Below are positions 412 through 23,677 of a stretch of DNA of 64,000 bases, in pieces; the stretch's first letter is position 1, and each line of letters opens with the position of its first letter. The DNA is taken from assembly GCA_023399355.1 (NCBI GenBank), contig JAEWQC010000006.1, forward strand, positions 8,422 through 72,421, given 5' to 3'. The translations under genes and the position numbers were made by a program. Origin of the DNA: Bacillota bacterium. GTDB taxonomy: Bacteria; Bacillota; Clostridia; Acetivibrionales; DTU013. The notes under the pieces are model-generated. The model did no database searches and was not told where the DNA came from. It saw only the letters and a list, made by a program, of their open reading frames with translations.

Positions 412-660
412 ATGGAACTGAGAGAGAAAATCGTCGAAATGATAATAGGAAAGGCAGCGGCATTGCAGAAAGTGGATCCATCTACCTTGAATGAACAAAC
501 TGATTTAGCCAGGGATTTAAGTATGAAATCGGGAAATCTTGTTTTAATCATTGGTGCTATTGAAGATGAATATGACTGTAACATCGATTTTATGGCTTTC
601 CGAAAGAAAGCTACCATAGGTGCGGCTGCAGAATATGTCGCGGAACTGATTGAAGGTTGA
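412..660 (+). CDS. small acyl-carrier-protein-like protein
   Basis: ORF 373-660; the likely start is ATG 412 (MELREKIVEMI...). TDLARDLSMKSGNLVLIIGAIEDEYD aligns with the ACP DLGxDSLxxVELVxxLEEEF region. The Ser is kept, but the Asp before it is Lys. Confidence 0.5.
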   Translation: MELREKIVEMIIGKAAALQKVDPSTLNEQTDLARDLSMKSGNLVLIIGAIEDEYDCNIDFMAFRKKATIGAAAEYVAELIEG

Positions 661-694
661 TTGTTTTTTTACTAATGGGGATTGGAGAGAGGTT

Positions 695-2437: not shown

Positions 2438-2476
2438 CCGGATCTGTAAAGCTTTTTATTGTGAGGAGCTAATACT

Positions 2477-3481: not shown

Positions 3482-3496
3482 GGGGATGCTGGTACT

Positions 3497-4603: not shown

Positions 4604-4846
4604 ACCGGGAATAACCTTTTGCCGATTCATGAATTGGCTGAAATGGCAGCAGTACCTATTAGAGCTTGATTTCAAAAAGAAATAAGGTAAATTTTTCCGA
4701 GTATCTGATTAACAAAAGGGTGGAAACAACTGCATATGACTGCAATGTAAAACACGCAGAAAAGAATCTGGAGCGAGTGAGGCAAATAGCCAAAACAAAG
4801 AGTTTAATCGGCTAAAGATTAAAAAGTAAGGGGTGCGAAATTTTCT

Positions 4847-6952: not shown

Positions 6953-6968
6953 AGCGGGGTGACTGACT

Positions 6969-7637
6969 ATGCAGTGTGATCGCACAAGCAAGGCGTTGAA
7001 CGATATAGATCTGGTATCTGCCAAAGCGGAAAATTGTTGCGTTGTTGACCGGGCAAGCACGCTGATGGGCCTGGTCAGGAAGGAAATCTGCGGCCATTGC
7101 GTCTATTGCCGAGAAGGGACTGCCCAGCTGCAGGCAATAATACTGGAGATATCAAACGGGAAGGGAAAGCCGGATGATCTTGATTTGATTCTTGAAATAT
7201 GCTCAACAATACGTGATATGGCAGATTGTGAGCTTTCAAAAACCGCCTGTGCGAATCTGGCCGAAGCCGTGGAGAACTTCCGGGATGAATGGGATGCGCA
7301 TATCAGGAGAAAAAAATGCCCGGCTGCCGTATGCAGGAGATTGGTGACCTATCATATATCTGGTGAGAAGTGCAACGGCTGCGGAGAATGCTTCGGCAAA
7401 TGTCCGGAAGGTGCTATAACCGGAGATAAGGATATGATCCATGTCATCAACCAGGATCAGTGCATGAACTGCGGGATCTGTTTCGATATTTGCAGTAAAT
7501 TGCAGAATGCTGTACTGAAAGCAGGTACGGTTAAGCCGCGGACTCCGGAAAAACCGATTCCGGTAGGCACGTGGCAGGACAAACCTGCAGGACTGGGAGG
7601 ACTTAATCGGGGGTTGGGTCTGAAAAAACAGAATTAG
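6969..7637 (+). CDS. NuoF-C-terminal-like 4Fe-4S protein with a 2x[4Fe-4S] ferredoxin domain
   Basis: 222 aa. CGHCVYCREGT resembles the NuoF/HydB N3-cluster motif. CNGCGECFGKCP and CMNCGICFDICS form a dicluster ferredoxin. Confidence 0.6.
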   Translation: MQCDRTSKALNDIDLVSAKAENCCVVDRASTLMGLVRKEICGHCVYCREGTAQLQAIILEISNGKGKPDDLDLILEICSTIRDMADCELSKTACANLAEAVENFRDEWDAHIRRKKCPAAVCRRLVTYHISGEKCNGCGECFGKCPEGAITGDKDMIHVINQDQCMNCGICFDICSKLQNAVLKAGTVKPRTPEKPIPVGTWQDKPAGLGGLNRGLGLKKQN

Positions 7638-7740
7638 GCAAAAATAAATCAAACTATTGTGCCGGAAAACGTCAATCACATTGTACGAGCGACCGGTATG
7701 TCAAATAATACAAAGAAACGAGGGGATAGTTCTGAAGAAC

Positions 7741-9192
7741 ATGGAATGTGATCTGGTTGTAATAGCGGCAGGCCCTGCAGGTCTGGCGGCGGCAGTTGCC
7801 GCGGCACAGAAGGAGGCAAGCGTAATTGTACTCGAAAAGTCCAATACAACCGGCGGAGCGGGAAATATGGGCATGGGCCCTTTCGGGGTCGGGACCAAGT
7901 ACCAGAAGGATCAGCTAATTAAAATTACAAAGGAAGAGGCCTTTGAAAAATTCATGAACTATACTCACTGGAGGTCGGACGGACGCCTGGTCAGAGAATA
8001 CATCTACAAATCCGCTGATACGATCCAATGGTTGGAAGACATGGGCGTGGAATTTGCAGGCGCATACAAGTATTTCCCGGAATCGGAGGCCACCTGGCAT
8101 ATTGTCAAGCCGGAAACGGGATGTTTCGGTCCGCGCGCCGCTTCAAGGATGTACAAGATTATGACGGAGCGGGCGGAAGAGCTTGGAGTGCAGTTCCTGT
8201 ATGAAACGCCGGCTGTAAAGATCCTGAAGGATGAAGGAAAGATAACGGGTGTCGTTGGCAGGGATAAAAACGGTGATGAAGTTCATATTCAATGCAACGC
8301 GGTAGTTGTGGCAACCGGCGGCTTCGGTGACAACCCGGAAATGGTCAAGCAGATGACGGGTTACGATTTGGGTAAGGATATGTTTTCCTTCAGAATTCCC
8401 GGCTTGGTCGGGGATGGAATCAGAATGGCCAGGGAGGTTGGGGCAGGCAAAACGGAAACGAATATCGAAATGGCTTACAGCTGTCCGAGTACAACAGGCT
8501 GTATCACGGTAACGACAGTGCATATGCAGCCGAACCTGCTGGTTAATCTCCAGGGAGAACGCTTTATGAACGAAGAAGTGATGGCAAATTCGACATTTAC
8601 AGCGAATGCGTTGGCCTTGCAGAAGGAGCGTTGCGGTATTTCCATAATTGACGACAGTATTAAAAAATATTATATGAAACATGAAATCGACAATGTCAGC
8701 CTGGTGTTTCAAGTGACCTCAGGAGAGAATTACGATGAAGAAATGGACAATGCGTTAAAGGCCGGAGACCCATATGTATTTGCAGCCGACTCCATTGAAG
8801 AACTGGCGGTGAAAACCGGTGTTGATCCCGAAACCCTTAAAAAGACCGTCGCGGAATATAATGAATACTGTAAGGGAAGAGACGAACTTTTCAATAAGAA
8901 CTACAGATATATGAAACCTCTTGTCGGACCGAGATTTTATGCTGTCAAGTTCTACCCGGGCGGCTATGGCACAGTGGGCGGTATAAAAATTAATTACAAG
9001 ACCGAAGTTGTAACAGATGACTTTGACGTCATACCCGGCCTTTACGCAGCCGGTACGGATGCCTGCACCATATATGGGGATTCCTATGTATTTATACTTC
9101 CCGGAAATACGATGGGCTTTGCAGTCAACAGCGGCAGGATGGCCGGCGAGCACGCCGTCGATTATTTGCTGAAGCTTTATAACGAGGTGTAA
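7741..9192 (+). CDS. FAD-dependent reductase (FAD_binding_2; fumarate reductase / flavocytochrome-c-like flavoprotein)
   Basis: ORF 7657-9192; ATG 7741 follows GAGGGGA. DLVVIAAGPAGLAAAVAAAQ is the dinucleotide fold; VVVATGGFG and GLYAAGTDA blocks follow. Confidence 0.75.
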   Translation: MECDLVVIAAGPAGLAAAVAAAQKEASVIVLEKSNTTGGAGNMGMGPFGVGTKYQKDQLIKITKEEAFEKFMNYTHWRSDGRLVREYIYKSADTIQWLEDMGVEFAGAYKYFPESEATWHIVKPETGCFGPRAASRMYKIMTERAEELGVQFLYETPAVKILKDEGKITGVVGRDKNGDEVHIQCNAVVVATGGFGDNPEMVKQMTGYDLGKDMFSFRIPGLVGDGIRMAREVGAGKTETNIEMAYSCPSTTGCITVTTVHMQPNLLVNLQGERFMNEEVMANSTFTANALALQKERCGISIIDDSIKKYYMKHEIDNVSLVFQVTSGENYDEEMDNALKAGDPYVFAADSIEELAVKTGVDPETLKKTVAEYNEYCKGRDELFNKNYRYMKPLVGPRFYAVKFYPGGYGTVGGIKINYKTEVVTDDFDVIPGLYAAGTDACTIYGDSYVFILPGNTMGFAVNSGRMAGEHAVDYLLKLYNEV

Positions 9193-9386
9193 GATATCCA
9201 CCACTTCTATAGTGGCGGGTACCGATTTAGTTTTCAGGCATTTTCTTTCGAATGATCGAAAGAAAACGGTGCGAATATATCTTCCACCTCGTTGAAACGC
9301 AGCAGCGGTAAGAAAAATTTTCTTTGAATAGATGCGTCATAATTCATGAATTGTTGAACCGAAAAATATTGCAGAGGAGAAAATGT

Positions 9387-10352
9387 ATGAGAGTTTTAGG
9401 AATATCCTTCGGAAGAAGGATGAAAAATTGCGAGATATTGGTAAAAGAAGCGTTGATGGAAGCGGAAAAGGCTGGTCACGAGGTAGCCCTCATACGTATG
9501 ATCGACTATGATGTCAAGCCTTGCATTGGCTGCGGCGGCTGCGGCAATTCCCTTGATAAGGGCGGGTCAGGCAGGTGTGTAATAAAGGACGATCTTCCGC
9601 TGATAGATGAAGAATTCCTGAAATCCGATGCAATCATCGTTGGTGCGCCGGTTTATGCATTGGGGCCGAGCGGTCAGCTGAAACAGATGGCTGATAGAAT
9701 GGGACCGTCCCATGACCTGGCATTTTTGACGATGGCGAATAAGCAAAGGATTGCCGAAGGAAAAACGGGCGACCAACTGCTGGATCCGAGAAATTTCAAG
9801 CAGAGGTACGCAGGACTTATCTCAGTCGGCGGAGCAGTGACGCATAACTGGGTTTCCTTTGGTCTGCCGACGATGCATATTCTCTGTTTCCCATCACAGA
9901 TCAAGGTCATTGACCAGATTGATGCCTATGGTATGGGTAGCAAGGGCAGCCCGCTTCTGGACGAGGATCTTATGGAGAGAACCAGAAGACTTGGCAGGAA
10001 TATTGTATCGGCAGTTGGCAAACCGCACGATGAAATAGGCTGGCTGGGGGACGATGACGGCGTTTGTCCCGTATGCCATTGCGACCTCGTTATGCTCAGC
10101 GGTACAACCAGAGTGGAATGTCCGGTATGCGGAAGCTATGGGCAGCTTTCCGTCGACGGAGACAAGGTGAAGGTTACCTTCAGCGAAGCGGAACAGAAGA
10201 GGTCCAGACTTTATCTGCCGGGTAAGATGGAGCATTATAACGAGATCAAGTCGTTCTCCGGTATTGCAGGTCCGAAAATCATGGCGGCAGGGGATGAACT
10301 GAAAAGGAAACTGAAGAAATATGAAGGTTACAGGGAACTGAAGCTGAAGTAA
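9387..10352 (+). CDS. flavodoxin-fold FMN reductase / iron-sulfur flavoprotein-like protein with C-terminal Cys4 ribbon
   Basis: ORF 9324-10352; ATG 9387 follows GAGGAGA. MRVLGISFGRR...CIGCGGC...AIIVGAPVYALGPSGQLKQMADRM matches the NADPH-dependent FMN reductase/Isf pattern. CPVCHC...CPVCGS lies in the C-terminal part. Confidence 0.6.
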   Translation: MRVLGISFGRRMKNCEILVKEALMEAEKAGHEVALIRMIDYDVKPCIGCGGCGNSLDKGGSGRCVIKDDLPLIDEEFLKSDAIIVGAPVYALGPSGQLKQMADRMGPSHDLAFLTMANKQRIAEGKTGDQLLDPRNFKQRYAGLISVGGAVTHNWVSFGLPTMHILCFPSQIKVIDQIDAYGMGSKGSPLLDEDLMERTRRLGRNIVSAVGKPHDEIGWLGDDDGVCPVCHCDLVMLSGTTRVECPVCGSYGQLSVDGDKVKVTFSEAEQKRSRLYLPGKMEHYNEIKSFSGIAGPKIMAAGDELKRKLKKYEGYRELKLK

Positions 10353-10514: not shown

Positions 10515-11549
10515 ATGAAAACCAAAAGACTTGAATTTTTAAAACGTGATGTGAGCGGTATTATTTTAGGGACAATGCCGCTTTTTTCCGGAGATATGAA
10601 AGAGCATTTTTCACACCTTGACATGGCGAAAGAAGAAGGAATTAATTTTCTTGATACTGCCATCGGTTACGGCGGCGCGGAAATTTCCATCGGAAAATGG
10701 ATGAATGCCCGTAACAACCGCAAGGATATTGTCCTTATAACCAAGGGATGCCATCCAGGCCCGAATGGCAAACGTGTTAATGCAAAAGACCTCACGGAAG
10801 ATCTGAACAGATCGCTCGAAAGGCTTGAAACCAGCTATATCGACATATATCTGCTACACAGGGATGACCTTGATTTGCCGGTAGGTCCTATTGTTGAAGC
10901 TTTGAATGAACACTTTGCCGCCGGAAGGATAAAATCATTCGGTGGATCGAACTGGACGCACAAGCGGATCCAGGAAGCAAATGATTATGCAGAAGCTCAT
11001 GGATTGGAGCCTTTCAGAGCCAGCAGCCCAAGTTACAGCCTGGCCGAGCAGGCTGAAGAAGCCTGGGCTCCCGGTACAGTTACCATCAGCGGCTTGACGG
11101 AACAAACTGCCAGGGACTGGTATGCAGCTAATCAAATGCCTGTCCTGGCGTACTCCAGCCTGGCAAGAGGATTTTTTTCCGGTATGGTAACGCGTGAACG
11201 TTGGGAAGCTGAAAAGGATCATATTATGAGTCCTGGAATTTTGTTCTCCGGTAAGGCGACAAAAGACCAGCTGACCGGGCGCGGTGAAACCATTGACCCG
11301 ATCTGTGCCAAAGCTTACTGCGTCGAGAACAACTTTAAGCGTTTGGATCGAGCAGCAGAACTGGCTAAGGAAAAGGACTGTACCATTGCACAGATTGCTC
11401 TGGCCTTCATCATTAACAGTCCGATGAACGTATTCCCGATCTCGGGTGTTGCAAACCGTACAGAGCTTCAGTCATCCATTAATGCGGCTAATATCCTCCT
11501 GAATGAAAAAGAACATAGCTGGCTTGATTTGAAAACAGACAAAAGATAA
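10515..11549 (+). CDS. aldo/keto reductase
   Basis: 344 aa. Blocks GINFLDTAIGYGGAE, IDIYLLHRDD, SFGGSNW and PVLAYSSLARGFFSG. Confidence 0.85.
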   Translation: MKTKRLEFLKRDVSGIILGTMPLFSGDMKEHFSHLDMAKEEGINFLDTAIGYGGAEISIGKWMNARNNRKDIVLITKGCHPGPNGKRVNAKDLTEDLNRSLERLETSYIDIYLLHRDDLDLPVGPIVEALNEHFAAGRIKSFGGSNWTHKRIQEANDYAEAHGLEPFRASSPSYSLAEQAEEAWAPGTVTISGLTEQTARDWYAANQMPVLAYSSLARGFFSGMVTRERWEAEKDHIMSPGILFSGKATKDQLTGRGETIDPICAKAYCVENNFKRLDRAAELAKEKDCTIAQIALAFIINSPMNVFPISGVANRTELQSSINAANILLNEKEHSWLDLKTDKR

Positions 11550-11636
11550 CGGAACTAAAACATTGCATGGAAAATGAGTACGCAAAGGATGTTTTTGTTT
11601 TAGAAACATCCTTTGCGGTACGTGAAATAGGACTGC

Positions 11637-12077
11637 ATGGAAAGGAAGATGCGACAGATGGATTTTCAGGCATATAACGCAATATTGGTATGCAGTGATG
11701 AAATTAAAAATGTAACAGTCGGCGATATTACGATCGGCTATGAATTCAAAATCAAATATCCATCCTATAGAGGGGCTTTTCTCAGTTGTATTGAAAAACT
11801 GGAATTTGAGGAGGACGGTGAGAAAATTACCCCCAGGGATGTATATTTCTATCTGAATGGAAAACAGTTCCTGATAGATGAACTGCCGGAACTTTTCAAG
11901 GAATACTGGTTTGTCCGTGACAAGGCAACGATACGTGTAATGAAAGAAGGCGGCGTGAACAGGGGCGAACACAGCATCAGGGTATTTATGAAACATCGTG
12001 TCCCATATACGGGATATTTCGGACAATATCTCGTCCTGGACAGCGACGTTACACGGACGATCCTTGCACAAGGGTAG
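11637..12077 (+). CDS. small protein, candidate beta subunit of a C-glycoside deglycosidase (DUF6379-like); function uncertain
   Basis: ORF of 146 aa; the start may be ATG 11658, after AGGAAG. It ends 15 nt before the TIM-barrel gene, whose RBS (GAAGGAGG) overlaps the stop. The call rests mainly on the size and on the conserved small-subunit / TIM-barrel / Gfo-Idh-MocA arrangement. Confidence 0.45.
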   Translation: MERKMRQMDFQAYNAILVCSDEIKNVTVGDITIGYEFKIKYPSYRGAFLSCIEKLEFEEDGEKITPRDVYFYLNGKQFLIDELPELFKEYWFVRDKATIRVMKEGGVNRGEHSIRVFMKHRVPYTGYFGQYLVLDSDVTRTILAQG

Positions 12078-12092
12078 AAGGAGGCATGGAAC

Positions 12093-13055
12093 ATGGAAAA
12101 CGGTATTAAACTTGGTGTTTCGCTTTATAGTTTTTCCACTGAATATATTTCGGACAAACTGGATCTGGAGGGAGTACTTAAAAAGGCAAAAGATCTTGGC
12201 TTCGAAGGGATAGAAATCGTTGCAGCCCAGATGGTTCCCGGGTATCCTTATCCTTCCGGCGAGTGGCTTGAGTATTTTAAGAAGCTGCTGGCAAAATATG
12301 AACTGAAACCTGTATGCTGGAGCGCATATATTGATATGGGAATCCGTACTGACCGTGACTTGACGGAACATGAAATCATCCAATACACGGTGAATGATTT
12401 GCTTTATGCAAAAAAGGCAGGATTCCCGATGGTTCGTACACAGCATGCCATTTCACCGAAAATTTTCAAGGCAATGATTCCGTTCTGCAAGAAGCTCGGC
12501 ATGAAGCTGACCATTGAGATGCATCATCCGCATCATCCTGAGGTGCCTGTATGGAAAGATTACTTTGAGATAATGAAGGGAGAGGGCAAAGGGGTATTGG
12601 GGTTTGTACCGGATTTCAGCATCTTCCAGACAAGACCTCACCAGTTGTATATTAACCAGTCGGTTTCCTTCGGCTTCAGAAAGGACAAACTTGCCGGGAT
12701 CATTGAAAAGCATGACCGGAACGTTCCGCTGGAAGAAGTGCTGAAAGACGATTTTTCAGAAGTGGAACAGAGAATCACAGATGAAATATACCATAAATTC
12801 AGTGCTCCTGCCAATCTGAAACAATTGCAGGGTATCATCGACTGTGCATTTTATATACACGGGAAATTTTATTATCTGCCTGACGGCGAGCATGATCCGT
12901 GCATTCCATATGAAGAAATCCTGACAACGATACGGGATCTCGGATATAAGGGCTATATAGCCAGCGAATATGAAGGACACCATTTTGATGAGACGATAGA
13001 CTCTGCAGTGCAGCTGCAGAGGTATGTTGCGTTGAACAAAAGGATTCTTGGATAG
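12093..13055 (+). CDS. sugar phosphate isomerase/epimerase (xylose-isomerase-like TIM barrel)
   Basis: 320 aa. Blocks LGFEGIEIVAAQ, LTIEMHHPHHPE, GFVPDFSIF and YIASEYEGHH (metal-ligand-like H/E/D positions). Confidence 0.75.
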   Translation: MENGIKLGVSLYSFSTEYISDKLDLEGVLKKAKDLGFEGIEIVAAQMVPGYPYPSGEWLEYFKKLLAKYELKPVCWSAYIDMGIRTDRDLTEHEIIQYTVNDLLYAKKAGFPMVRTQHAISPKIFKAMIPFCKKLGMKLTIEMHHPHHPEVPVWKDYFEIMKGEGKGVLGFVPDFSIFQTRPHQLYINQSVSFGFRKDKLAGIIEKHDRNVPLEEVLKDDFSEVEQRITDEIYHKFSAPANLKQLQGIIDCAFYIHGKFYYLPDGEHDPCIPYEEILTTIRDLGYKGYIASEYEGHHFDETIDSAVQLQRYVALNKRILG

Positions 13056-13079
13056 TACAAATTTAGAAAGGATATCAGC

Positions 13080-14180
13080 ATGAAAAATGGAAAATTGCAA
13101 ATTGCGATTATAGGCTGCGGAGGTATTGCGAACAACAAGCATATGCCGGCGCTGAAACAACTGGCCGATTACGGCGTTATGACGGCATTCTGCGACATTG
13201 TTGAGGAGCGCGCCGCTAAAGCCGCCAAGGAATTTGGTACGGCGGATGCGAAGATTTATACCGATTATAAAAAGCTGTTGAACGACACATCCATTGACGT
13301 TGTCCATGTTTTGACGCCGAATGTTGCCCATTGCCCGGTAACGGTTGCCGCTTTTGAGGCCGGAAAGAACATCATGTGCGAAAAGCCTATGGCACATTGT
13401 TCTGCGGATGCCCGGAAGATGTTGGATGCGTGGAAGAAATCCGGAAAAAAATTCACGATAGGTTACCAGAACAGGTTCAGGAATGAAGTCCAGACTCTGC
13501 ATAAGGCTTGCGAGGCGGGAGAATTGGGAGACATTTATTTTGCAAAGGCTCACGCAATCCGCCGCCGTGCCGTCCCGACCTGGGGCGTATTCCCGAACAA
13601 GGCATTGCAGGGTGGGGGACCTTTGATTGATATCGGAACACATGCCTTGGATATTACGCTTTGGATGATGAATAACTACAGGCCGAAGTTGGTTGACGGA
13701 TCGGTATTCTTTAAAATGGCCGATAAGTTCGACGGAAATATGTTCGGACCGTGGAATCCCAAAACTTTCGAAGTGGAGGATTCCGCTTTTGGATTTATTA
13801 AAATGGAAAATGGAGCAACTATTTTCCTGGAAGCTTCATGGGCATTGAATGTACTGGATTCAAGGGAAGCCGCAACGACCCTGTGCGGTACGGAGGCTGG
13901 AGCTGAAATCAGGTCCGGTATGAGCTATAAAGACAATGAGCTTATTTTCAATAGGGCAAAGAATGGAAACCTTATGGAAGAAAGAATTTCTTCGGGTGGA
14001 AATATTGCGTACTTTGAAGGCGCAGGCAGTGAACCCGGTTACCTTGAAGCAAAACAATGGCTATTGTCCATAATAAATAATACGCAACCTTTGGTAAAAC
14101 CAGAGCAGGCCTTTACCATTACGCAGATTCTGGAAGCGATCTATACTTCAAATTCTACAGGAAAACCGGTCGTATTCTAA
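13080..14180 (+). CDS. Gfo/Idh/MocA-family NAD(P)-dependent oxidoreductase
   Basis: 366 aa. Rossmann KLQIAIIGCGGIANNKHMPAL, MCEKPMA (EKP motif) and LIDIGTHALD. Confidence 0.85.
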   Translation: MKNGKLQIAIIGCGGIANNKHMPALKQLADYGVMTAFCDIVEERAAKAAKEFGTADAKIYTDYKKLLNDTSIDVVHVLTPNVAHCPVTVAAFEAGKNIMCEKPMAHCSADARKMLDAWKKSGKKFTIGYQNRFRNEVQTLHKACEAGELGDIYFAKAHAIRRRAVPTWGVFPNKALQGGGPLIDIGTHALDITLWMMNNYRPKLVDGSVFFKMADKFDGNMFGPWNPKTFEVEDSAFGFIKMENGATIFLEASWALNVLDSREAATTLCGTEAGAEIRSGMSYKDNELIFNRAKNGNLMEERISSGGNIAYFEGAGSEPGYLEAKQWLLSIINNTQPLVKPEQAFTITQILEAIYTSNSTGKPVVF

Positions 14181-14290
14181 TAGCTTCTTCCCTGAGGGTC
14201 TATTGTGACTGGTTATCGGCAAAGCCCGACGGTAATTTATTCAGATTATGCACCCGTACAAAATTTAATGTGAAAGAATGGGAGACAGAT

Positions 14291-14923
14291 ATGAAAATGA
14301 CAACGGATGAAAAGCTTGAGCGGCTTTGGGATGCTCAGGAAATCGGTAAGGTTATGACCAGATATGCATTCCTTCATAACGCCCATGAGCATATGAGAAC
14401 AGTTGAGCTTTTTGCCCTTGACCGTGACGACGTGTGGATTGAATGCGGAGGTATGGGTATCTATAAAGGACCGGAGGGTATTAAAAAGTTCTTCTACACC
14501 TGGCATAAGTCCATGGAGGGCGATATGAAAGGCGCCTTTAACGAGCACCTGCTGACGACACCTCTGATCGAAGTGGCGAGGGATGGCAAAACGGCAAAAG
14601 CCGTTTGGATGTCGCCGGGCGCGGAGACAAGAAGAGTCAAACCCGAAAATGCGCTTGAGGCAATGTGGATTTGGGGTAAGTATGCCGTTGATTTCATTAA
14701 GGTGAATAACGCGTGGAAATTCTGGCATTTTACCATTACGCAGGATTTTATGTGCGATTATCATCATTCATGGGTCGAAGCCGAAACCTCGGCTGGTCAA
14801 AGGATCACACACAATGGGATGCCGTCGGCTGACGAACCTAATTCCTTCAAAGATGACGGATATATAAAAGATAAAATTGCTGCTTTATTTCCGGAATTGC
14901 CCGAGCCGTATGATACTTATTGA
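14291..14923 (+). CDS. SnoaL-like / NTF2-fold protein
   Basis: ORF 14270-14923; ATG 14291 follows GGGAGA. The size and the alternating hydrophobic pattern (LWDAQEIGKVMTRYAFLHN...WKFWHFTI) fit an NTF2-like cone fold. I recognise no catalytic motif. Confidence 0.5.
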   Translation: MKMTTDEKLERLWDAQEIGKVMTRYAFLHNAHEHMRTVELFALDRDDVWIECGGMGIYKGPEGIKKFFYTWHKSMEGDMKGAFNEHLLTTPLIEVARDGKTAKAVWMSPGAETRRVKPENALEAMWIWGKYAVDFIKVNNAWKFWHFTITQDFMCDYHHSWVEAETSAGQRITHNGMPSADEPNSFKDDGYIKDKIAALFPELPEPYDTY

Positions 14924-15017
14924 ATAAGAGATTTAAGCAGTACGGAAACAGACGATAGTTAGCATGAAACTTGCTAACTACAGCAATTAAAACAAAAATT
15001 TTTCAGGAGGCTTTATT

Positions 15018-15371
15018 ATGGTTAAACGGGAAGTAAAAGACTGCAAGCCTTATGAAGCGCCAAATCATTTTAACATGACAGCTATGAGGCTGCAAGGCAA
15101 AGATGAATCAGGTGCTGCGAAATTCTGGATGGGAATGTCACATTTTCTGCCGGGTGGAGGTGCGGAATACGATTATGAGAATTCACCGACAGAAAAGATA
15201 TATTTTGTTCTGGAAGGCGAAGTGGCAATCTATTCAAAAGATAAGAAGGACAAGTTTGTTCTGAAAAAGGGTGATTCCATATTTATTGGCCCGAATGAGG
15301 GCAGGTCGATGATGAATGAGACAAATATGCCTGCAACCACGCTTGTAATTATCAACTATCCCAATGCATAA
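15018..15371 (+). CDS. cupin-domain protein
   Basis: 117 aa; AGGAGG RBS. GMSHFLPGGGAEYDYE...IYFVLEGEVAI...GDSIFIGPNEG fits the two-motif cupin pattern. Confidence 0.7.
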   Translation: MVKREVKDCKPYEAPNHFNMTAMRLQGKDESGAAKFWMGMSHFLPGGGAEYDYENSPTEKIYFVLEGEVAIYSKDKKDKFVLKKGDSIFIGPNEGRSMMNETNMPATTLVIINYPNA

Positions 15372-15396
15372 ACGCACGAATAAGGAGGAAGGAAAC

Positions 15397-16191
15397 GTGA
15401 GTACGGAATTCGTAACGAAAGATTTTACCGAAACGATGTTCAATGTTAAAGGTAAAGTAGCGCTTGTAACCGGTGCAACCGGAAATCTCGGCAAGGCTGT
15501 TTCTCTGGGATATGGTCACCAGGGAGTAAAGGTTATGCTGACCGGACGTTCCGGGGAAAAATTGAAGGCGCTATGCGATGAAATGAAGGGAAAAGGTATG
15601 GACTGCGCCTATTCGACAGGCGATCCCGCGAAGGAAGAAGATGTGAAGCGTGTAGTAAACGATACTGTTGGCAAATACGGCGGCATCGATATTTTATTGA
15701 CCTCCGCCGGTATGAATAATCCCAAACCCATTCTGAAGCAGCCTTCAAGTGAATGGAAAGAAATAATGGATGCCAACGTACTGGGTACATGGCTCTTCTG
15801 TAAATACGCCGGAGAAGTCATGGCAAAGCAGGGCAGGGGCGGAAAGGTCATTCTGGTTTCGTCCACAAGAGGCAAACTGGGGATGAAGAACTATACAGCC
15901 TACAGCCCTTCCAAGGCGGCTATTGACCTGATGGCAAAATCGCTGGCCTGCGAATGGGGCGAATATGGCATCAATGTAAATGCAATAGGCCCGACGGTAT
16001 TTCGTTCGGAATTGACACAATGGATGTTTGATGACGATACGGCCCGTACCAGGTTCCTCACCCGCATACCGATCGGACGGCTCGGCGAGCCGGGGGATTT
16101 TGTAGGCGTCTGTACTTTCCTGGCATCCAGTGCGAGCGATTTTATCACTGGCACAACTATATACGTCGATGGTGGTTATCTGGCAGGATAA
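15397..16191 (+). CDS. short-chain dehydrogenase/reductase (SDR)
   Basis: ORF 15364-16191; GTG 15397 follows AGGAGGAAGG. TGATGNLGKA (TGxxxGxG-type), SAGMNNP, and VSSTRG...YSPSKAA (Ser...YxxxK). Confidence 0.85.
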   Translation: MSTEFVTKDFTETMFNVKGKVALVTGATGNLGKAVSLGYGHQGVKVMLTGRSGEKLKALCDEMKGKGMDCAYSTGDPAKEEDVKRVVNDTVGKYGGIDILLTSAGMNNPKPILKQPSSEWKEIMDANVLGTWLFCKYAGEVMAKQGRGGKVILVSSTRGKLGMKNYTAYSPSKAAIDLMAKSLACEWGEYGINVNAIGPTVFRSELTQWMFDDDTARTRFLTRIPIGRLGEPGDFVGVCTFLASSASDFITGTTIYVDGGYLAG

Positions 16192-16234
16192 TAAAGTAAA
16201 ACGGTAAGCATGCAGGACGCTAATCCTAAAAAAC

Positions 16235-16268
16235 CGGGGAAGTGAACAGGTGCTTCCCCGTATATTAA
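16235..16268 (+). terminator. possible intrinsic terminator after the SDR gene
   Basis: CGGGGAAG (16235-42) pairs perfectly with CTTCCCCG (16253-60) across a 10-nt loop. The tail TATATTAA is only weakly U-rich. Confidence 0.35.
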
Positions 16269-16278
16269 GGGGATAAAT

Positions 16279-18240
16279 ATGAGAAAATTGTTATGGAAGC
16301 CATCCGACCAGTATATCAAGGCGACAAATATATACTCCTTTATCAATCATGTAAATGAAAAATTCAACTTGAAAATGAATGACTATACATCTTTATATAA
16401 ATGGTCTGTTGATTTTCCTTCTGATTTCTGGGATACATTATGGCACTTCCTGGACATAAAATGTTCCATGCCCTATACGGCTGTTGTGGATGATATTAAG
16501 AAGTTCCCGGGTGCAAGCTGGTTTGTTGGCGCTAAACTCAATTATGCTGAAAATATACTGCGCTTTTCTGACAGCTTGGCTCCTGCAATTATATTCAGGG
16601 GAGAGGACCGGATCAGGGAGGAGTACAGCCATAAGGAACTGTATGAACAGGTGGTAAGGCTTGCCGACACATTAAGGAATGAAGGGATTAAACCAGGCGA
16701 TATGATTGCCGCGTATATGCCCAATATGCCTCAGACGATTATAGCTATGCTTGCCTGCTCAGCCATAGGCGCCGTCTGGTGCTCCTGTGCAACGGACATA
16801 GGACCGCAGGCTGCCATAGACAGGCTCGGACAAGTCAAACCAACTGTTTTGTTCACTGTGGACGGTTACTTCTATAAGGGTAAATGCTTTGACATTTTGC
16901 AAAATGCAAGCCAGGTTGCCAAGGGAATCGATTCTGTAAAAAAGGTTGTTGTTACTCATTACGCAGGTGATAAATCACAGGTAGGCACTATCCAGGGTGG
17001 AGTACTGTGGGAAAATTATATTTCAAATAATACACCGGAAAATTTCAAGTTTGAACAGCTTCCGTCGGAGCATCCTCTTGTCGTGATGTTTTCCTCGGGA
17101 ACGACCGGAAAGCCGAAATGCATGCTGCAGTCGGCTGCGGGTCTACTGCTCAACCAACTGAAAGAGCTTGTCTTGCAGAATGACCTGAAGCCCTCCGACC
17201 GCATGCTTTATATTACGTCCTGCAGTTGGATGATGTGGAACTGGCAGACGGCGGCTATAGGAACAGGCGCTTCCCTTGTCCTGTATGACGGGAATCCGTC
17301 CTACCCCGATACATCTGCAATATGGAAGATACTGCAAGAGGAAAAAGTCACCATTTTCGGACTTAGTGCAAGCTTTATCCTTGCACTTATGGCAGAGAAT
17401 TTTTCGCCGAAAAAGGCGGTTTCACTTCCTTGCTTAAGGGAAATTTCGCAAACGGGTTCTGCACTTTCCGATGACGGATTCGATTATATCTACAATGAGA
17501 TAAAGAAGGATTTGCATTTCAATTCGATTGCAGGAGGAACAGACATCAACGGATGCTTTTCTTCGGGCAATCCTATCAGCCCCGTATATTCCGGGGAGCT
17601 TCAGGGACCGGGGCTCGGCATGAAGATTAACTCCTTCAATGAAAAGGGCGAGCCAGTACGGGACGAACAGGGAGAACTTGTCTGTGAAATGCCTGCTCCG
17701 TCAATGCCTCTTCATTTTTGGAACGATCCGGAAAACAGCCGGTATATGGATGCTTACTTCAGAGTGTACCCAGGCATCTGGCATCATGGCGATTATGTAC
17801 TGATTCATTCAGATACGGGCGGAATAACTTATTACGGCAGATCGGATTCGGTCCTGAAGCCGTCCGGAGTCCGGATCGGGACAGCCGAAATTTACAACCA
17901 GGTAGAGAAGCTCCCCCAGATAAGAGAAAGCCTGGCGATAGGACAGAATTATAAGGGAGACCAGAGAATCCTTCTTTTTGTACAGACAATGGAGGGGGTT
18001 GAACTTGACGGGAATCTCAAGAAGGAGATTAAAAGAGTGTTAAGACAGAATGCCTCACCGCGTCACGTGCCTGCAGTCATTATGTCTGTACCGGATATTC
18101 CGAGAACCCTGAATATGAAGAAAGTGGAAAGTGCCGTGACAAATATCGTGAACGGCAGAAAGGTTACCAACAGGGATGCACTGGCTAATCCCGAATCGCT
18201 TGATTATTTTGAGCAAATATTGCCGCAGCTTAGTGAATGA
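16279..18240 (+). CDS. acetoacetate-CoA ligase (acetoacetyl-CoA synthetase)
   Basis: 653 aa. N-terminus LLWKPSDQYIKATNIYSFINHVNEKF...YKWSVDFPSDFW, MFSSGTTGKPKCM and YGRSDSVLKPSGVRIGTAEIY match the acetoacetyl-CoA synthetase subfamily of AMP-forming ligases. Confidence 0.85.
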   Translation: MRKLLWKPSDQYIKATNIYSFINHVNEKFNLKMNDYTSLYKWSVDFPSDFWDTLWHFLDIKCSMPYTAVVDDIKKFPGASWFVGAKLNYAENILRFSDSLAPAIIFRGEDRIREEYSHKELYEQVVRLADTLRNEGIKPGDMIAAYMPNMPQTIIAMLACSAIGAVWCSCATDIGPQAAIDRLGQVKPTVLFTVDGYFYKGKCFDILQNASQVAKGIDSVKKVVVTHYAGDKSQVGTIQGGVLWENYISNNTPENFKFEQLPSEHPLVVMFSSGTTGKPKCMLQSAAGLLLNQLKELVLQNDLKPSDRMLYITSCSWMMWNWQTAAIGTGASLVLYDGNPSYPDTSAIWKILQEEKVTIFGLSASFILALMAENFSPKKAVSLPCLREISQTGSALSDDGFDYIYNEIKKDLHFNSIAGGTDINGCFSSGNPISPVYSGELQGPGLGMKINSFNEKGEPVRDEQGELVCEMPAPSMPLHFWNDPENSRYMDAYFRVYPGIWHHGDYVLIHSDTGGITYYGRSDSVLKPSGVRIGTAEIYNQVEKLPQIRESLAIGQNYKGDQRILLFVQTMEGVELDGNLKKEIKRVLRQNASPRHVPAVIMSVPDIPRTLNMKKVESAVTNIVNGRKVTNRDALANPESLDYFEQILPQLSE

Positions 18241-18284
18241 CTCATAGTCAAAAGGGACTGCAGATAATGAAAGGGGGCTTCTGC

Positions 18285-19217
18285 ATGAAAGAAATCAGGA
18301 ATATAGCAATAATCGGCGGCGGCTTGATGGGGTGCGGCATTGCACAAACCTTTGCAGGCTGTGACAAACTGGAAGTCAGAATTTTTGACCAGTATATAAC
18401 CGGCGAAAAGGTGAGATCACGTATTAAATCTAATATAGATTTGCTGCTGAGCAAAGGGGTGTTCACCCTGGCTGAAGCCGATGCGCTGCTTGGCAGGATT
18501 GCTACATTTGACAATATGGCCGATGCGGTAAAGGATGCTGAATTTATCGTGGAGTGCATTCCAGAGAATATGACTAAAAAACAGGGCCTTTTTGCGGAGC
18601 TTGAGCCGCTTTGCAGCCCAACGACAATTTTTGCCACCAATACTTCGGTTATGAGCATAACGGAAATATCCGGAAAGGCAGCGAACAAAGCAAGGATCGT
18701 CGGAACTCACTTCTGGAATCCTCCGTATCTTATTCCGCTGGTTGAGATTGTAAAATCTGATTACACCTCGGATGAGGTTATGGACGCTACCATGAATTTA
18801 CTCAAACTGGCAGGCAAACACCCTATCCGTGTAAAAAAAGATGTTCCGGGTTTTGTGGCAAACAGGCTGCAGCATGCACTATGGCGCGAAGCCATCTCCA
18901 TTGTGGAAAAAGGAATTGCAGACGCAGCAACTGTAGATGAAGCTGTCAAAATGAGTTTCGGACTCAGACTGCCCGTCCTGGCTCCCCTGGAAAATGCGGA
19001 TCTGGTAGGAACTGATCTGACACTGTCCATTCACAGCTATTTGCTCAAACATCTGGAGAATTCAACAGAGCCTTCCCCTCTTCTTAAAGAGAAGGTTCAA
19101 AGCGGCGATCTGGGCTTCAAGACAGGGAAAGGCTTCCAGGAATGGTCACCGGATCAAATCGAGACATCCAGCAAAAATCTGACAGAATATTTAGTTAAAG
19201 CAATTTATGGCAAGTAA
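18285..19217 (+). CDS. 3-hydroxyacyl-CoA dehydrogenase-family NAD-dependent dehydrogenase
   Basis: ORF 18237-19217; ATG 18285 follows AAAGGGGG. IAIIGGGLMGCGIAQ, FATNTSVMSITE, HFWNPPYLIPLVEIV and FVANRLQHALWREA. Confidence 0.8.
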   Translation: MKEIRNIAIIGGGLMGCGIAQTFAGCDKLEVRIFDQYITGEKVRSRIKSNIDLLLSKGVFTLAEADALLGRIATFDNMADAVKDAEFIVECIPENMTKKQGLFAELEPLCSPTTIFATNTSVMSITEISGKAANKARIVGTHFWNPPYLIPLVEIVKSDYTSDEVMDATMNLLKLAGKHPIRVKKDVPGFVANRLQHALWREAISIVEKGIADAATVDEAVKMSFGLRLPVLAPLENADLVGTDLTLSIHSYLLKHLENSTEPSPLLKEKVQSGDLGFKTGKGFQEWSPDQIETSSKNLTEYLVKAIYGK

Positions 19218-19250
19218 TAATATAAAATATCAAATAAACCGGAGGTAAGT

Positions 19251-20195
19251 ATGATGGGTAAGAAAATTCTAGTTGATTTAAGTCATCCTTTTAGTGCGGA
19301 TATACCAGTGTGGCCGTATTTTGCAAAACCTAAAATAGACACCATGCACAATCTTGCAAAAAGTGGCGTTTTAACTCAGAAAATTGACGTTGTCATGCAC
19401 TGCGGCACACATGCGGATGCCCCGCGTCATGTTATGGAATATGAGTTTGATGGCAAACGTGCACGTTATACACATGAGCTTCCATTGGACGCTTATTATG
19501 GCGATGCGGTATGTTTGGATATCCGTGTTGAGGATTGGGGACTTATTAAACCGGCACATCTTGAAGATGCTTGCAAACGTGCAAATATCAAACCAGAAGA
19601 ACTCAAGGACATGGTTCTTTGCTTAAGAAGTGGAATGCATCTGAAATTTGATGATAGCAAGGATTACTATCATTATTCCTGCGGATGCGGCAGAGAAGCG
19701 GGAGAATGGTTTGCAAAGTACCATCCGAAATGCGTAGCGATGGATATGCAGGCCCTGGATCATCCTCTTCACACGACTATGGGCCAAAACGGGCCTCCGT
19801 CAATATCAATGGATCTCGCAGGCAAGTCGGGCAGACCGATTTCTGAAGAATATACCGAGAAATTCGGGATTGAAGCATATGCGGAATTCCACAAACCTAC
19901 CTTCATCAAAGTATTTGGAAAAGAAAGGTATATGCGGGCGTATGACAAACTGGAAGCAGCCGGTCAGCCCGGAACCTGGGAGCCGTGTCACAAGCTCATG
20001 ATGGGCAACGGCATTGTCGGTGTGGAAAACCTCGGAGGAGACCTTGACAAGGTCGTAGGAAAACGGTTCAAATTTATGGCATTCCCAATCCGCTGGTATC
20101 TTGGGGATGGTTCCATGGTCCGCTGTGTTGCTGAAATCGACGAAGACGATCTGAATCCTGTTCCCGATAGAACCTACAGATACGGCGGGTTCTAA
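19251..20195 (+). CDS. cyclase-family metal-dependent hydrolase (kynurenine-formamidase-like)
   Basis: 314 aa; GGAGG RBS. The signature HCGTHADAPRH (HxGTHxDxPxH) is present. Confidence 0.75.
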   Translation: MMGKKILVDLSHPFSADIPVWPYFAKPKIDTMHNLAKSGVLTQKIDVVMHCGTHADAPRHVMEYEFDGKRARYTHELPLDAYYGDAVCLDIRVEDWGLIKPAHLEDACKRANIKPEELKDMVLCLRSGMHLKFDDSKDYYHYSCGCGREAGEWFAKYHPKCVAMDMQALDHPLHTTMGQNGPPSISMDLAGKSGRPISEEYTEKFGIEAYAEFHKPTFIKVFGKERYMRAYDKLEAAGQPGTWEPCHKLMMGNGIVGVENLGGDLDKVVGKRFKFMAFPIRWYLGDGSMVRCVAEIDEDDLNPVPDRTYRYGGF

Positions 20196-20278
20196 ATAAG
20201 TTCGGGCTGCTTCTTCTGAAGTTTATTCAGGAAGTATGCGCAGACATGAATCAAAAATTTCAGGAAAGGAAGTAATCA

Positions 20279-21112
20279 GTGTTGGGAGAATTTGATAATA
20301 AAGTAATTTTGACTGTAGCCACAACAGGCGCCTGGCCGTCAAAGCAGGATAACCCCAATATACCCCTGCAGCCGCGTGAGATAGCGGACGAGATCTATGC
20401 TTGCTGGAAGGCGGGAGCTTCAGTCGCACATATACATGTGCGGGACGACAACAACAAATCGTCCATGAGCTTTGAAAAATTCAAGGAAACCGTAGAATAC
20501 ATCCGTGCGACTGACTGCGATATCGTTATCAACCTTACCACATCCGGTCAGCTTGGACTTGCGGATGAGGACAGGATGAAACACATTATTGCGTTGAAAC
20601 CGGAACTGGCTTCCTATGACTGCGGTTCAATGAACTGGCTGCACACATCCGTATTTGAGAACAGCCCGAAATTCCTGGAAAAGCTTGGCGTGGTGATGCA
20701 GGAGAATAACATCAAACCTGAAATCGAAATTTTTGACACCGGAATGATTTATAATGCGCTGTATTACCTTAAGAAAGGCATACTGAAGGCGCCGCTCCAC
20801 TTCCAGTTCGTATTGGGCGCCGCAGGCGGAATGGATGCCACGGTGGAAAATTTGGTTTTTCTGAAAGGATTGATCCCTGCCGGATCAACATGGGGAGCGC
20901 TCGGAATAGGAAAAGGACATCTGCCGGTCATGTATGCGGCACTTGCGCTCGGCGGACATTTAAGAGTTGGCATGGAGGACAATATTTATTACTCAAAAGG
21001 CGTTTTGGCAAAATCAAATGTTGAATTTGTCGAAAGAACAAAACGCATTGCGCGTGAATTGAACAAAGAAATTGCAACGCCTGACGAAGCAAGAAAAATA
21101 TTGGGCTTGTAA
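20279..21112 (+). CDS. beta-keto acid cleavage enzyme (BKACE / DUF849; 3-keto-5-aminohexanoate cleavage enzyme family)
   Basis: 277 aa; GTG start after [40 protein letters not shown] and the C-terminal [14 protein letters not shown] closely track the Kce sequence as I recall it. Confidence 0.85.
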
Positions 21113-21180
21113 CATATATTCATATTACGGTTGCTGGACTATTTGTGCCGCCGGCGACAGCGGCGGAATGGAGAATTTGT

Positions 21181-22365
21181 ATGGGAGAAGTTGTCATTAT
21201 CAGTGCGGCCAGGACTCCGGTGGGCAATTTTGGAGGGACTCTCGCGGGCCTTTCCGCGGTGGAATTGGGAAGAATTGCGGCGGAAGAGGCTATAAAAAGG
21301 GCGGGAATAGATAAGAAAATTATAGATGAAGTGATTATCGGGAATGTGCTGTCAGCCGGGTTGGGACAGAATCCTGCAAGGCAGGTTTCGGTCAATGCCG
21401 GATTGCCGCTGACGGCAAGTGCGTTTACAATAAACAAGGTTTGCGGATCGGGCTTAAGGGCGATCAGTCTGGCAGCGCAGATCATCAAAGCGGGCGATGC
21501 GGATGCGATACTTGCAGGCGGTATGGAAAGCATGAGCAATGCGCCGTATCTTTTGAACAAGGCAAGATTCGGCTACAGGATGGGAGATGGCACTCTTGTG
21601 GATTCCATGACCCAGGACGGACTCATGGATACATTTAATCATTATCATATGGGTATTACTGCGGAAAATATTGCTGAGAAGTGGAATATTACAAGGGCCG
21701 AGCAGGACGAATTTGCAGCTGCAAGCCAGCAGAAAGCTGAAAATGCCGTTAAGACAGGAAGATTCAATGATGAAATAGTGCCTGTGATGATTCCGCAGAA
21801 AAAAGGAGATCCGACCCTGTTTGACACGGATGAGTTCCCGAGATTCGGGACAACCTGCGAAATACTGTCCAGGCTCAGGCCGACCTTCAAAAAAGATGGA
21901 ACTGTTACTGCCGGAAATTCATCGGGCATTAATGACGGAGCTGCCATGATGATCGTAATGGATAGTGAAAAGGCTGCAAGGCTCGGACTTAAACCGATGG
22001 CAAAGATCGTTTCATACGACTCCGCCGGATTGGAGCCGGAAATCATGGGCTACGGGCCGGTGCCATCGTCAAGGAAGGCGCTTATAAAGGCCGGGCTTAG
22101 GGTTAAGGATCTTGATCTTGTTGAAGCCAATGAGGCTTTTGCAGCTCAAGCTCTTGCAGTTATGGCGGATCTGGAGCTTGATCCGCAGAAGGTTAATGTA
22201 AATGGCGGAGCCATAGCTCTTGGACATGCGGTCGGTGCATCCGGTGCACGGATTACAACTACGCTTTTGTATGAAATGCAAAAGCGCAAATCCAGATATG
22301 GTCTTGCAACCCTTTGCATAGGGGGAGGGCAGGGAACGGCATTGATCGTGGAAGGCTGCTGGTGA
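21181..22365 (+). CDS. acetyl-CoA C-acetyltransferase (thiolase II)
   Basis: ORF 21145-22365; start ATG 21181. [22 protein letters not shown] (active-site Cys), [24 protein letters not shown] and CIGGGQGTA. Confidence 0.9.
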
Positions 22366-22450
22366 ATCTGAAACAGTGCAGAATTTGAAAGGCGGCGTGC
22401 AACCCGGTTTGCCGAATAACCTCCGCCGCTCAACTTAATTTGGAGAAAAA

Positions 22451-23677
22451 ATGGTGAAGAATAATAAAAATGCGTGGCTGGTTTTATGGATGGCAACAGG
22501 TATCAATTTTGTCGGCGGCATGCTCTATATTTGGAGTGTAATCAGCAAAGGCCTGATCAATGAGCTGCGCTGGACAAGTAAACAGGCATCTTTGCCGTAT
22601 ACAATTGCAATCATCTCATTTGTTGTTTTCATGACCGTGTTCGGGAAAATTCAGGATAAATACGGTCCGAAACTCACGGCTATGTTTTCTGGAATATTTA
22701 TAGGCCTTGGACTTATTCTCTCCGGTTTTACTACAAATCCGGCCGTGATGGTACTGACCTTTGGTCTGATTACAGGCGCCGGTATAGGAATATCAAATAT
22801 TTCCACTACTCCTCCGGCCGTAAAATGGTTTCCGCCTGACAAAAAAGGTATGGTCACAGGTATTGTCGTTGCCGGAGTAGGCATTGCATCTGTTTTTTAT
22901 TCTCCTCTGGCTAATTACCTTATAAAAACCATCGGGATTTCAAAAACATTTATTTATATAGGAATTGGCGCCCTTGTACTGATTCTGACAGGGGCACGGT
23001 TCCTGACAAATCCACCCGGGGGGTATGAAGCAGGCGGTATTAACGGACAAAACCGTTTAGGGCAGGATTCATCAGGATTTGGAAGAGATCTGAATTGGAG
23101 AGGCATGTTAGGTCGCCCTGATTTTTATATGTTGTGGCTGATGCTGGCATTTTCTTCATCAGCAGGTCTTATGATTATAGGACATGCCGCAAACATTACA
23201 AAGATCCAGGTACACTGGGAAGGCGGATATATTCTGGTTATACTGCTTGCCATATTCAATGCAGGCGGAAGGCTGCTTGGCGGAATTATATCAGATCGGA
23301 TCGGACGGATTCCGTTGATGCGTGTAATATTTATCCTTCAGGCACTGAATATGTTGTTTTTCTCAAGGTATACTACTATCGTGCTGCTTGCGGGAGGAGT
23401 CGCACTGGCGGGATTTTGTTACGGCGCCACATTTTCCATATTTCCTGCCACTGTGCTTGACCTGTATGGAGTAAAAAATTTCGGCTCGAATTATGGGCTG
23501 ATAATGACAGCATGGGGTTGCGGCGGCGTAATAGGGCCGATGGTTGCGGCAGTATCCGTGGATTCCGCGAAGACATACAATATTGCATATTTGATAGCGT
23601 GCATACTTCTGCTTGCTGCATTTTCCATAACATTTCTAATGAAACATAAGAATGTCTCTAATAATGTGATTTTATGA
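22451..23677 (+). CDS. MFS transporter (oxalate/formate-antiporter-like subfamily)
   Basis: 408 aa with about 12 hydrophobic segments and a central hydrophilic loop (GGYEAGGINGQNRLGQDSSGFGRD). GGAGA RBS. Confidence 0.8.
   Translation: MVKNNKNAWLVLWMATGINFVGGMLYIWSVISKGLINELRWTSKQASLPYTIAIISFVVFMTVFGKIQDKYGPKLTAMFSGIFIGLGLILSGFTTNPAVMVLTFGLITGAGIGISNISTTPPAVKWFPPDKKGMVTGIVVAGVGIASVFYSPLANYLIKTIGISKTFIYIGIGALVLILTGARFLTNPPGGYEAGGINGQNRLGQDSSGFGRDLNWRGMLGRPDFYMLWLMLAFSSSAGLMIIGHAANITKIQVHWEGGYILVILLAIFNAGGRLLGGIISDRIGRIPLMRVIFILQALNMLFFSRYTTIVLLAGGVALAGFCYGATFSIFPATVLDLYGVKNFGSNYGLIMTAWGCGGVIGPMVAAVSVDSAKTYNIAYLIACILLLAAFSITFLMKHKNVSNNVIL

Follow-up and report, generated by a model that had tools for sequence, protein, structure and literature searches.

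The stretch of DNA analysed here (the window: 64,000 nucleotides of contig JAEWQC010000006.1 in assembly GCA_023399355.1, from an uncultured Bacillota bacterium) carries a block of catabolic genes that includes a beta-keto acid cleavage enzyme (BKACE), and it raises a simple question: what compound do these genes degrade? An original prediction, made from six genes at 16279-23677, had read them as a pathway for a beta-hydroxy or beta-keto acid and had called its substrate not evident. We propose that the functional unit is one catabolic operon on the + strand, 15018-23677, by which phloroglucinol (1,3,5-trihydroxybenzene), a ring fragment freed from flavonoids and tannins, would be degraded anaerobically, and from the sequence evidence we put the probability of this reading at roughly 0.88. 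Its substrates can then be named as the published chain of phloroglucinol, dihydrophloroglucinol, (S)-3-hydroxy-5-oxohexanoate and triacetate (PMC10470551).

The six co-directional genes are as originally predicted: the coordinates of their longest open reading frames (ORFs) on the + strand are exact (16279-18240, 18237-19217, 19251-20195, 20279-21112, 21145-22365 and 22451-23677), and their families are confirmed by Pfam and NCBIfam. The left boundary at 16279 has to be moved, since the functional unit begins with two overlooked upstream genes, a cupin at 15018 and a reductase at 15397. The operon contains the following features, listed with the start sites that we favor.

15018-15371, + strand: small single-domain cupin of 117 aa (Pfam Cupin_2), heading the operon
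15397-16191, + strand: predicted phloroglucinol reductase (PGR), an NADPH-dependent short-chain dehydrogenase/reductase (SDR), by its match to 5g4k/5g4l
16235-16261, + strand: GC-rich hairpin of 8 bp, read from the sequence, within the 87-nt spacer between PGR and the ligase
16279-18240, + strand: acetoacetate-CoA ligase, AMP-forming (TIGR01217, NF002937)
18285-19217, + strand: TfD, predicted (S)-3-hydroxy-5-oxohexanoate dehydrogenase (3HCDH_N and 3HCDH domains, residues)
19251-20195, + strand: DPGC, predicted Mn-dependent dihydrophloroglucinol cyclohydrolase (Pfam Cyclase PF04199, residues)
20279-21112, + strand: TAL, predicted triacetate acetoacetate-lyase (Pfam BKACE PF05853, residues)
21181-22365, + strand: acetyl-CoA C-acetyltransferase, thiolase II (Thiolase_N/C, TIGR01930)
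22451-23677, + strand: major facilitator superfamily (MFS) transporter of the SfMCT / oxalate-formate-antiporter type (MFS_1, NF049980), last gene of the block

Three of these starts probably lie inside longer ORFs: ATG 18285 of TfD, behind AAAGGGGG (310 aa; longest ORF from 18237); ATG 21181 of the thiolase, behind GGAG (394 aa; longest ORF from 21145); and GTG 15397 of PGR, behind AGGAGG (264 aa; longest ORF from 15364). Shine-Dalgarno sequences are present for most genes, with a strong ribosome-binding site before the cupin; intergenic spacers measure 32-87 nt, and the cupin and SDR genes are 25 nt apart. Upstream, a 10-bp hairpin at 14955-14981 lies 3' of a SnoaL gene, and downstream a 416-nt gap separates the transporter gene from a cyclic di-GMP riboswitch.

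A predicted phloroglucinol reductase and three enzymes with diagnostic residues

The substrate is indicated most directly by the SDR at 15397-16191. A phmmer search of the PDB matched it to 5g4k/5g4l (E 1e-82, 280 bits), with the next SDR at 4e-45. Searching with its AlphaFold model (predicted local distance difference test score 87.5) returned the same protein, entered as 'Phloroglucinol reductase from Clostridium sp.', with a Z score of 37.5 and 261 aligned residues, 48% of them identical; all other solved SDRs were at most 33% identical. The cluster thus encodes a predicted SDR-family phloroglucinol reductase of its own, and this match led to the anaerobic pathway by which Clostridium scatologenes degrades phloroglucinol, in which PGR, the Mn-dependent cyclase-family enzyme DPGC, the 3HCDH-family enzyme TfD, the BKACE TAL, a thiolase and a CoA-transferase convert phloroglucinol to acetyl-CoA (Zhou et al., mBio 2023, PMC10470551).

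We propose that the operon in the window follows this route with one substitution. PGR would use NADPH to reduce phloroglucinol to dihydrophloroglucinol, whose ring DPGC would open by retro-Claisen hydrolysis to give (S)-3-hydroxy-5-oxohexanoate. TfD would oxidize this free acid to 3,5-dioxohexanoate (triacetate), and TAL would cleave triacetate with acetyl-CoA into acetoacetate and acetoacetyl-CoA. In a fifth step the acetoacetate-CoA ligase would convert acetoacetate to acetoacetyl-CoA, with ATP going to AMP, and in a sixth the thiolase would split both molecules of acetoacetyl-CoA, for a net yield of three acetyl-CoA per ring. Our assignment of steps 1-4 and 6 draws on homology, on diagnostic residues and on synteny shared with the characterized C. 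scatologenes cluster, and we infer step 5 from the family of the ligase together with the absence of the usual CoA-transferase genes, ctfA and ctfB (CtfAB). In the original prediction a dehydrogenase acted on a free beta-hydroxy acid, followed by the BKACE with acetyl-CoA, a ligase and a thiolase; that logic was right, as judged by the family calls and the published pathway.

All diagnostic residues published for DPGC, TfD and TAL are found in the window's proteins. DPGC carries the metal motif HxGTHxDxPxH, with the metal site conserved, and a substrate pair, Trp21/Tyr23; with the second Met as translation start, this pair takes the numbers Trp20/Tyr22 of the C. scatologenes enzyme (CsDPGC). 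All 81 homologues keep these Trp, Tyr, His, His, Asp and His residues, and DPGC sequences from many phyla show 72-87% identity. Proteins from Acidaminobacter hydrogenoformans, Sporomusa malonica, Anaerobium acetethylicum and Fusibacter sp. 3D3 (loci L010, L011, L013 and L038) share 77-83% identity with the window's DPGC, and these same organisms are represented in the UniRef50 cluster that holds CsDPGC (PMC10470551). By its residues and its synteny this protein, once thought to open an amide, lactam or ester, is better read as a DPGC that would open a ring by C-C retro-Claisen cleavage.

In TfD, the comparison with Hbd that had been suggested for the dehydrogenase comes out divided. Aligned with C. 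butyricum Hbd (4kug/4kue), the protein retains the catalytic Ser, His and Asn as Ser137, His158 and Asn209, and has lost both CoA-binding positions, Lys56 being replaced by Val75 and Asn221 by Arg244, a pattern that matches the one published for C. scatologenes TfD (CsTfD; PMC10470551). Residue numbers differ by one from those of CsTfD if translation starts at M17, and the Ser/His/Asn/Arg set is kept in about 63 of 66 cluster-linked homologues.

TAL scores 363 bits against Pfam BKACE PF05853 and is the only BKACE in the window's genome. Its best solved match is the lysine-fermentation enzyme Kce (2y7d, E 2e-67), with which it shares the BKACE TIM-barrel fold, the Zn ligands, the catalytic Arg and Asp and an acetyl-CoA-dependent retro-Claisen/Claisen chemistry. 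The Zn and catalytic residues are intact (His51, His53, Arg229, Glu233 and Asp234), whereas the position of Kce's amine-recognizing Glu14 is occupied by Trp19; C. scatologenes TAL (CsTAL) has Trp16 at the corresponding position (PMC10470551). All 38 close cluster-linked BKACEs (at least 55% identity) have Trp here. In a more distant type (35-53% identity) the position is occupied by Val, Ile or Met in all 25 proteins, so that Glu is found in neither type. The distant type accompanies DPGC in Thermoleophilia and Desulfobacterota loci (for example L023, L027-L029 and L033-L034). BKACE homologues of 84-88% identity lie in clusters of the composition cupin-SDR-3HCDH-cyclase-BKACE.

The residue at the Glu14 position also bears on the substrates that had first been suggested, a carnitine-like or amino-hydroxy acid. 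A BKACE module for such a beta-hydroxy acid, including a role of the BKACE as lysine Kce and of the cyclase-family protein as a hydrolase of an amide, lactam or ester, would agree with the fact that the lysine Kce model NF052387 is the best NCBIfam match of the BKACE, with the weak matches of the 3HCDH protein to carnitine dehydrogenase models, and with the presence of amidases (among them kynurenine formamidase and isatin hydrolase) in the cyclase family. However, the Kce match, at 328 bits, falls below its equivalog cut-off of 382, and Trp takes the place of the Glu that binds the 5-amino group, which argues against a lysine Kce. The dehydrogenase lies far under both carnitine dehydrogenase cut-offs (NF005716, 150 vs 592; NF005471, 136 vs 414), no lysine aminomutase, 3,5-diaminohexanoate dehydrogenase or carnitine gene appears among the family matches at 2.5-23.7 kb, and the adjoining reductase is a phloroglucinol reductase homologue. 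We regard a substrate of this kind as highly improbable.

A conserved gene set with a cupin at its head

The phloroglucinol assignment gains weight from the wider distribution of these genes. A search for DPGC homologues gave at least 553 confirmed loci in species-representative genomes, and the 79 best of these were retrieved together with 10 kb on either side; the counts below, searched by tblastn with the window's proteins, refer to the 57 fetched loci of at least 15 kb (large DPGC loci). PGR is encoded in 53 of these, TfD and BKACE in 50 each, and the cupin in 49, in loci from Bacillota, Bacteroidales, Thermoleophilia, Desulfobacterota and others. With homologues of the core genes and the cupin co-located in 49-53 of 57 independent loci, the grouping seen in the window is not a product of chance.

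Among the closest known systems are Bacillota loci: L003/L086 (metagenome-assembled genome OH_PBrB_156), L012 (an Oscillospiraceae metagenome-assembled genome) and L080 (Wukongibacter sp. M2B1). All share the order cupin-PGR-TfD-DPGC-(thiolase)-TAL, and their DPGC and TAL proteins are 84-86% and 81-87% identical to those of the window; unlike the window, they lack the ligase and have ctfA and ctfB immediately preceding the cupin. In L003 and L012, genes for C-glycoside deglycosidase, aldo-keto reductase and SnoaL proteins are interleaved with the cluster. The Wukongibacter locus runs from phloretin hydrolase, ene-reductase, a sigma-54 activator and CtfAB into cupin-PGR-TfD-DPGC-TAL-MFS. A BKACE cluster bearing an Acetoanaerobium noterae name (P0257, 84% identical) has the same five-gene core beside chalcone isomerase and phosphotransacylase genes, as read on a metagenomic contig. 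The NetSyn BKACE preprint does not mention this gene context.

The locus of C. scatologenes itself lay outside the fetched set, and the comparison with it was made through published residues, the UniRef50 list and peptides. Its cluster, CSCA_1081-1091, encodes the cupin (1081), PGR (1082), DPGC (1083), TAL (1088) and TfD (1091), along with a thiolase, CtfAB, an MFS transporter and a regulator (PMC10470551). Common to this cluster and the window are the four core enzyme families with their diagnostic residues, the cupin before the reductase, the thiolase and the MFS transporter, as well as neighboring genes for phosphotransacylase and kinase enzymes (in the window, at 2477-4603). The window differs in its order, PGR-(ligase)-TfD-DPGC-TAL, in having no visible regulator, in its rare SfMCT-like transporter, and in encoding an AMP-forming ligase where C. 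scatologenes has an acetyl/butyryl-CoA:acetoacetate CoA-transferase. Compared by eye, the C. scatologenes tryptic peptides (CsDPGC, CsTAL, CsTfD, CsPGR and cupin) agree with the window's proteins at about two-thirds to four-fifths of positions, an observation of little weight.

Phloroglucinol is also said to be degraded by an aldolase-dependent route in a Collinsella strain, where PGR and DPGC are reportedly followed by a 3-hydroxy-5-oxohexanoate aldolase. The window shares PGR and DPGC with that route and has the TfD/TAL branch in place of the aldolase.

As a partner of the pathway enzymes the cupin is well conserved. Its homologues (45-78% identity) lie mostly directly upstream of the reductase, and it accompanies the pathway from Clostridia to Thermoleophilia; the neighbor varies by lineage, being PGR in most Bacillota-type loci and DPGC or TAL in Thermoleophilia. 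The protein lacks the canonical His metal ligands and has a set of invariant residues (Y12, H17, E59, K60, Y62, E68, E94, R96, N100 and N103). A fold search with its model returned generic small cupins only (best 1vj2, Z 15.4, 23% identity), and its nearest NCBIfam model, NF050094 ('beta-D-galactosidase', a name that points to M. tuberculosis), is matched at 77 bits against a cut-off of 175. The paper on the Rv1717 beta-galactosidase (PMC7873859) does not mention the gene's neighbors, and the counterpart of the cupin in C. scatologenes, CSCA_1081, is in the proteomics supplement, without discussion in the paper itself (PMC10470551).

The genes at the downstream end of the operon recur less often. 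The thiolase passes TIGR01930 at 492 bits (cut-off 241), with Thiolase_N and Thiolase_C domains, and has homologues in 20 of the large loci. The transporter matches the SfMCT model NF049980 over residues 8-386 (405 bits vs 320), which establishes family membership only. Transporters of its type occur in 2 of 57 loci, a 55% identical copy heading the operon of L012. In 11 of 57 loci TAL is followed by a more distant MFS protein, for which SfMCT is again the best-matching NCBIfam model (82 bits). A transporter is thus a recurrent, not a universal, member of these clusters, and a major facilitator transporter is part of the C. scatologenes cluster as well (PMC10470551). On the simplest reading the window's transporter would import phloroglucinol, though carriage of a monocarboxylate such as acetoacetate is conceivable.

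An acetoacetate-CoA ligase as a proposed replacement for CtfAB

What sets the window apart from its relatives is the gene placed between PGR and TfD, which adjoin in related loci. Its product passes both acetoacetate-CoA ligase models, TIGR01217 (795 bits vs 521) and NF002937 (861 vs 639), covering residues 2-647. A ligase of this kind was found by tblastn within 10 kb in none of the 57 large DPGC loci. CtfA and CtfB are encoded in 23 of these loci, among them almost all those from Bacillota. We read the ligase as a non-orthologous replacement of the step that activates acetoacetate, putatively standing in for the CoA-transferase. By this route the cell would gain about 1 ATP less per ring, as ATP goes to AMP where the transferase spends one acetyl-CoA thioester.

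The distribution of the two components within the order suggests how this arrangement arose. Of the 149 genomes in the order, 4 encode DPGC, and the two that belong to the same genus are not among these, which marks the cluster as accessory. A ligase at E 1e-100 or better occurs in 1 of the 149, namely in this genome only. The nearest relatives of the ligase (79-84% identical) come from metagenomic contigs, Haloimpatiens sp. and C. chromiireducens, where the genes stand alone in unrelated neighborhoods. We infer that the ligase was recruited separately from the cluster.

The position of the ligase gene could in principle reflect misassembly, an explanation that we rejected. At either end, the gene is joined to its neighbor within an intergenic spacer that holds a ribosome-binding site: upstream (16192-16278) an 87-nt spacer that contains the hairpin at 16235-16261, which has no T-tract, and downstream (18241-18284) a 44-nt spacer with a strong ribosome-binding site for TfD. 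The strand matches, the GC content at third codon positions of the ligase gene is not distinct from that of its neighbors, and two precise breakpoints would have been needed. Read from its longest ORF, TfD would share 4 nt with the end of the ligase gene, but that start is probably not the true one.

A ligase gene set among genes of the upper pathway might act on an earlier intermediate. In such a CoA-dependent branch the enzyme would activate triacetate or 3-hydroxy-5-oxohexanoate in place of acetoacetate, and the thiolase encoded in the block could cleave triacetyl-CoA; Brune and Schink reportedly proposed a CoA-dependent route for Pelobacter acidigallici in 1992. However, both acetoacetate-CoA ligase models are passed by a wide margin, the enzyme shares 79-84% identity with ligases that stand alone in Clostridia, away from any phloroglucinol genes, and TAL, which needs the free acid, is intact with its diagnostic residues. 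We consider activation of a C6 acid unlikely, and retain acetoacetate as the probable substrate of the ligase.

The cupin and the ligase together invite a further suggestion, which we offer tentatively and think rather doubtful. The His-less cupin might be a fifth, catalytic component of the pathway, possibly a keto-enol tautomerase or isomerase whose substrate would be phloroglucinol, dihydrophloroglucinol or triacetate; and the ligase, the thiolase and the SfMCT-like transporter might form a recruited, ATP-driven acetoacetate module that replaces CoA transfer where family-I CoA-transferases are lacking.

Several observations weigh against the phloroglucinol operon as we have described it. 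A search with PF01144 found no CoA-transferase match in the window's own genome, a metagenome-assembled genome of 5.75 Mb in 363 contigs (96% complete, 6.6% contamination), and as such an assembly is incomplete, fragmented and contaminated, the absence of CtfAB is not proven. Between the reductase and the solved enzyme, only 48% of positions are identical. The block contains no visible regulator gene, and no promoter was identified; a scan for sigma-54 -24/-12 promoters gave no site near the operon and a number of sites not above chance, and the sigma-54 activator encoded in 20 of 57 large DPGC loci has no counterpart at this operon. Finally, the window's BKACE misses NF053538, the equivalog model for 3,5-dioxohexanoate:acetyl-CoA acetone transferase (219 vs 430 bits). 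The BKACEs of two other phloroglucinol clusters miss it too (226 and 153 bits), which indicates that the model does not cover this subfamily; one of the two is of the distant type (L029) and the other of the Trp type (L080).

The surrounding island and the reach of the pathway

The operon lies within a larger island of about 0.4-23.7 kb that also carries C-glycoside deglycosidase and phosphotransacylase/kinase genes. Directly upstream, 10515-14923 encodes an aldo-keto reductase, a C-glycoside deglycosidase beta subunit (PF19906, 11637-12077) with a TIM-barrel partner, a Gfo/Idh/MocA oxidoreductase and a SnoaL-like protein. In L003/L086, L012 and L041, several of these gene types are found in between the genes of the phloroglucinol cluster, and the window's genome has three copies of the beta subunit gene. 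Further upstream, 373-10352 encodes an S15/CocE-type hydrolase, a phosphotransacylase, a butyrate-kinase-like protein, an Fe-S/flavin reductase set and an FMN reductase, and homologues of these genes lie beside phloroglucinol clusters in L008, L012, L022, L051 and L052. The presence of C-glycoside deglycosidase genes upstream, and their recurrence beside other clusters, suggest that C-glycosylated polyphenols may feed the pathway.

The same neighborhood raises the matter of whether phloroglucinol itself is the substrate. The same chemistry could act on a related cyclic 1,3-dione, on a substituted (methylated or acylated) phloroglucinol, or on an aglycone released by the C-glycoside deglycosidase, in which case the downstream acids would be substituted as well. 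Consistent with this are the deglycosidase genes directly upstream and their recurrence near clusters in other genomes, the modest identity of PGR to the solved enzyme, and the two PGR sequence types among DPGC loci (38-46% and 53-78% identity). Searches of the window's genome for phloretin hydrolase (PF18089) and chalcone isomerase (PF18232) were empty and, as the controls gave no match either, uninformative. On the other side, all pocket residues named for the characterized enzymes are the same in the window, the invariant pocket of a DPGC that is 72-87% identical across phyla argues for one common substrate, and the acetoacetate-CoA ligase and thiolase suit unsubstituted C4 products. A substituted substrate is thus improbable, and we favor phloroglucinol.

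The operon represents a known pathway and not a new kind of system; as a variant it has a ligase for the transferase and a rare type of transporter. The ligase-for-transferase swap implies that the acetoacetate step is modular and alters the expected ATP yield. The assignment also bears on how related proteins are annotated. In public databases, homologues of DPGC are named 'kynurenine formamidase' or 'cyclase family protein', those of TAL '3-keto-5-aminohexanoate cleavage protein', and those of the dehydrogenase '3-hydroxyacyl-CoA dehydrogenase', and the NCBIfam model for the TAL reaction misses the tested BKACEs from three phloroglucinol clusters. TAL homologues under such labels include Acetoanaerobium-named proteins, and one contig with such a protein carries the full phloroglucinol core. 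What was a pathway of 'unknown substrate' can now be annotated specifically and put to the test: the uncultured Bacillota-type anaerobe that carries it is probably able to ferment the phloroglucinol ring found in flavonoids and tannins.

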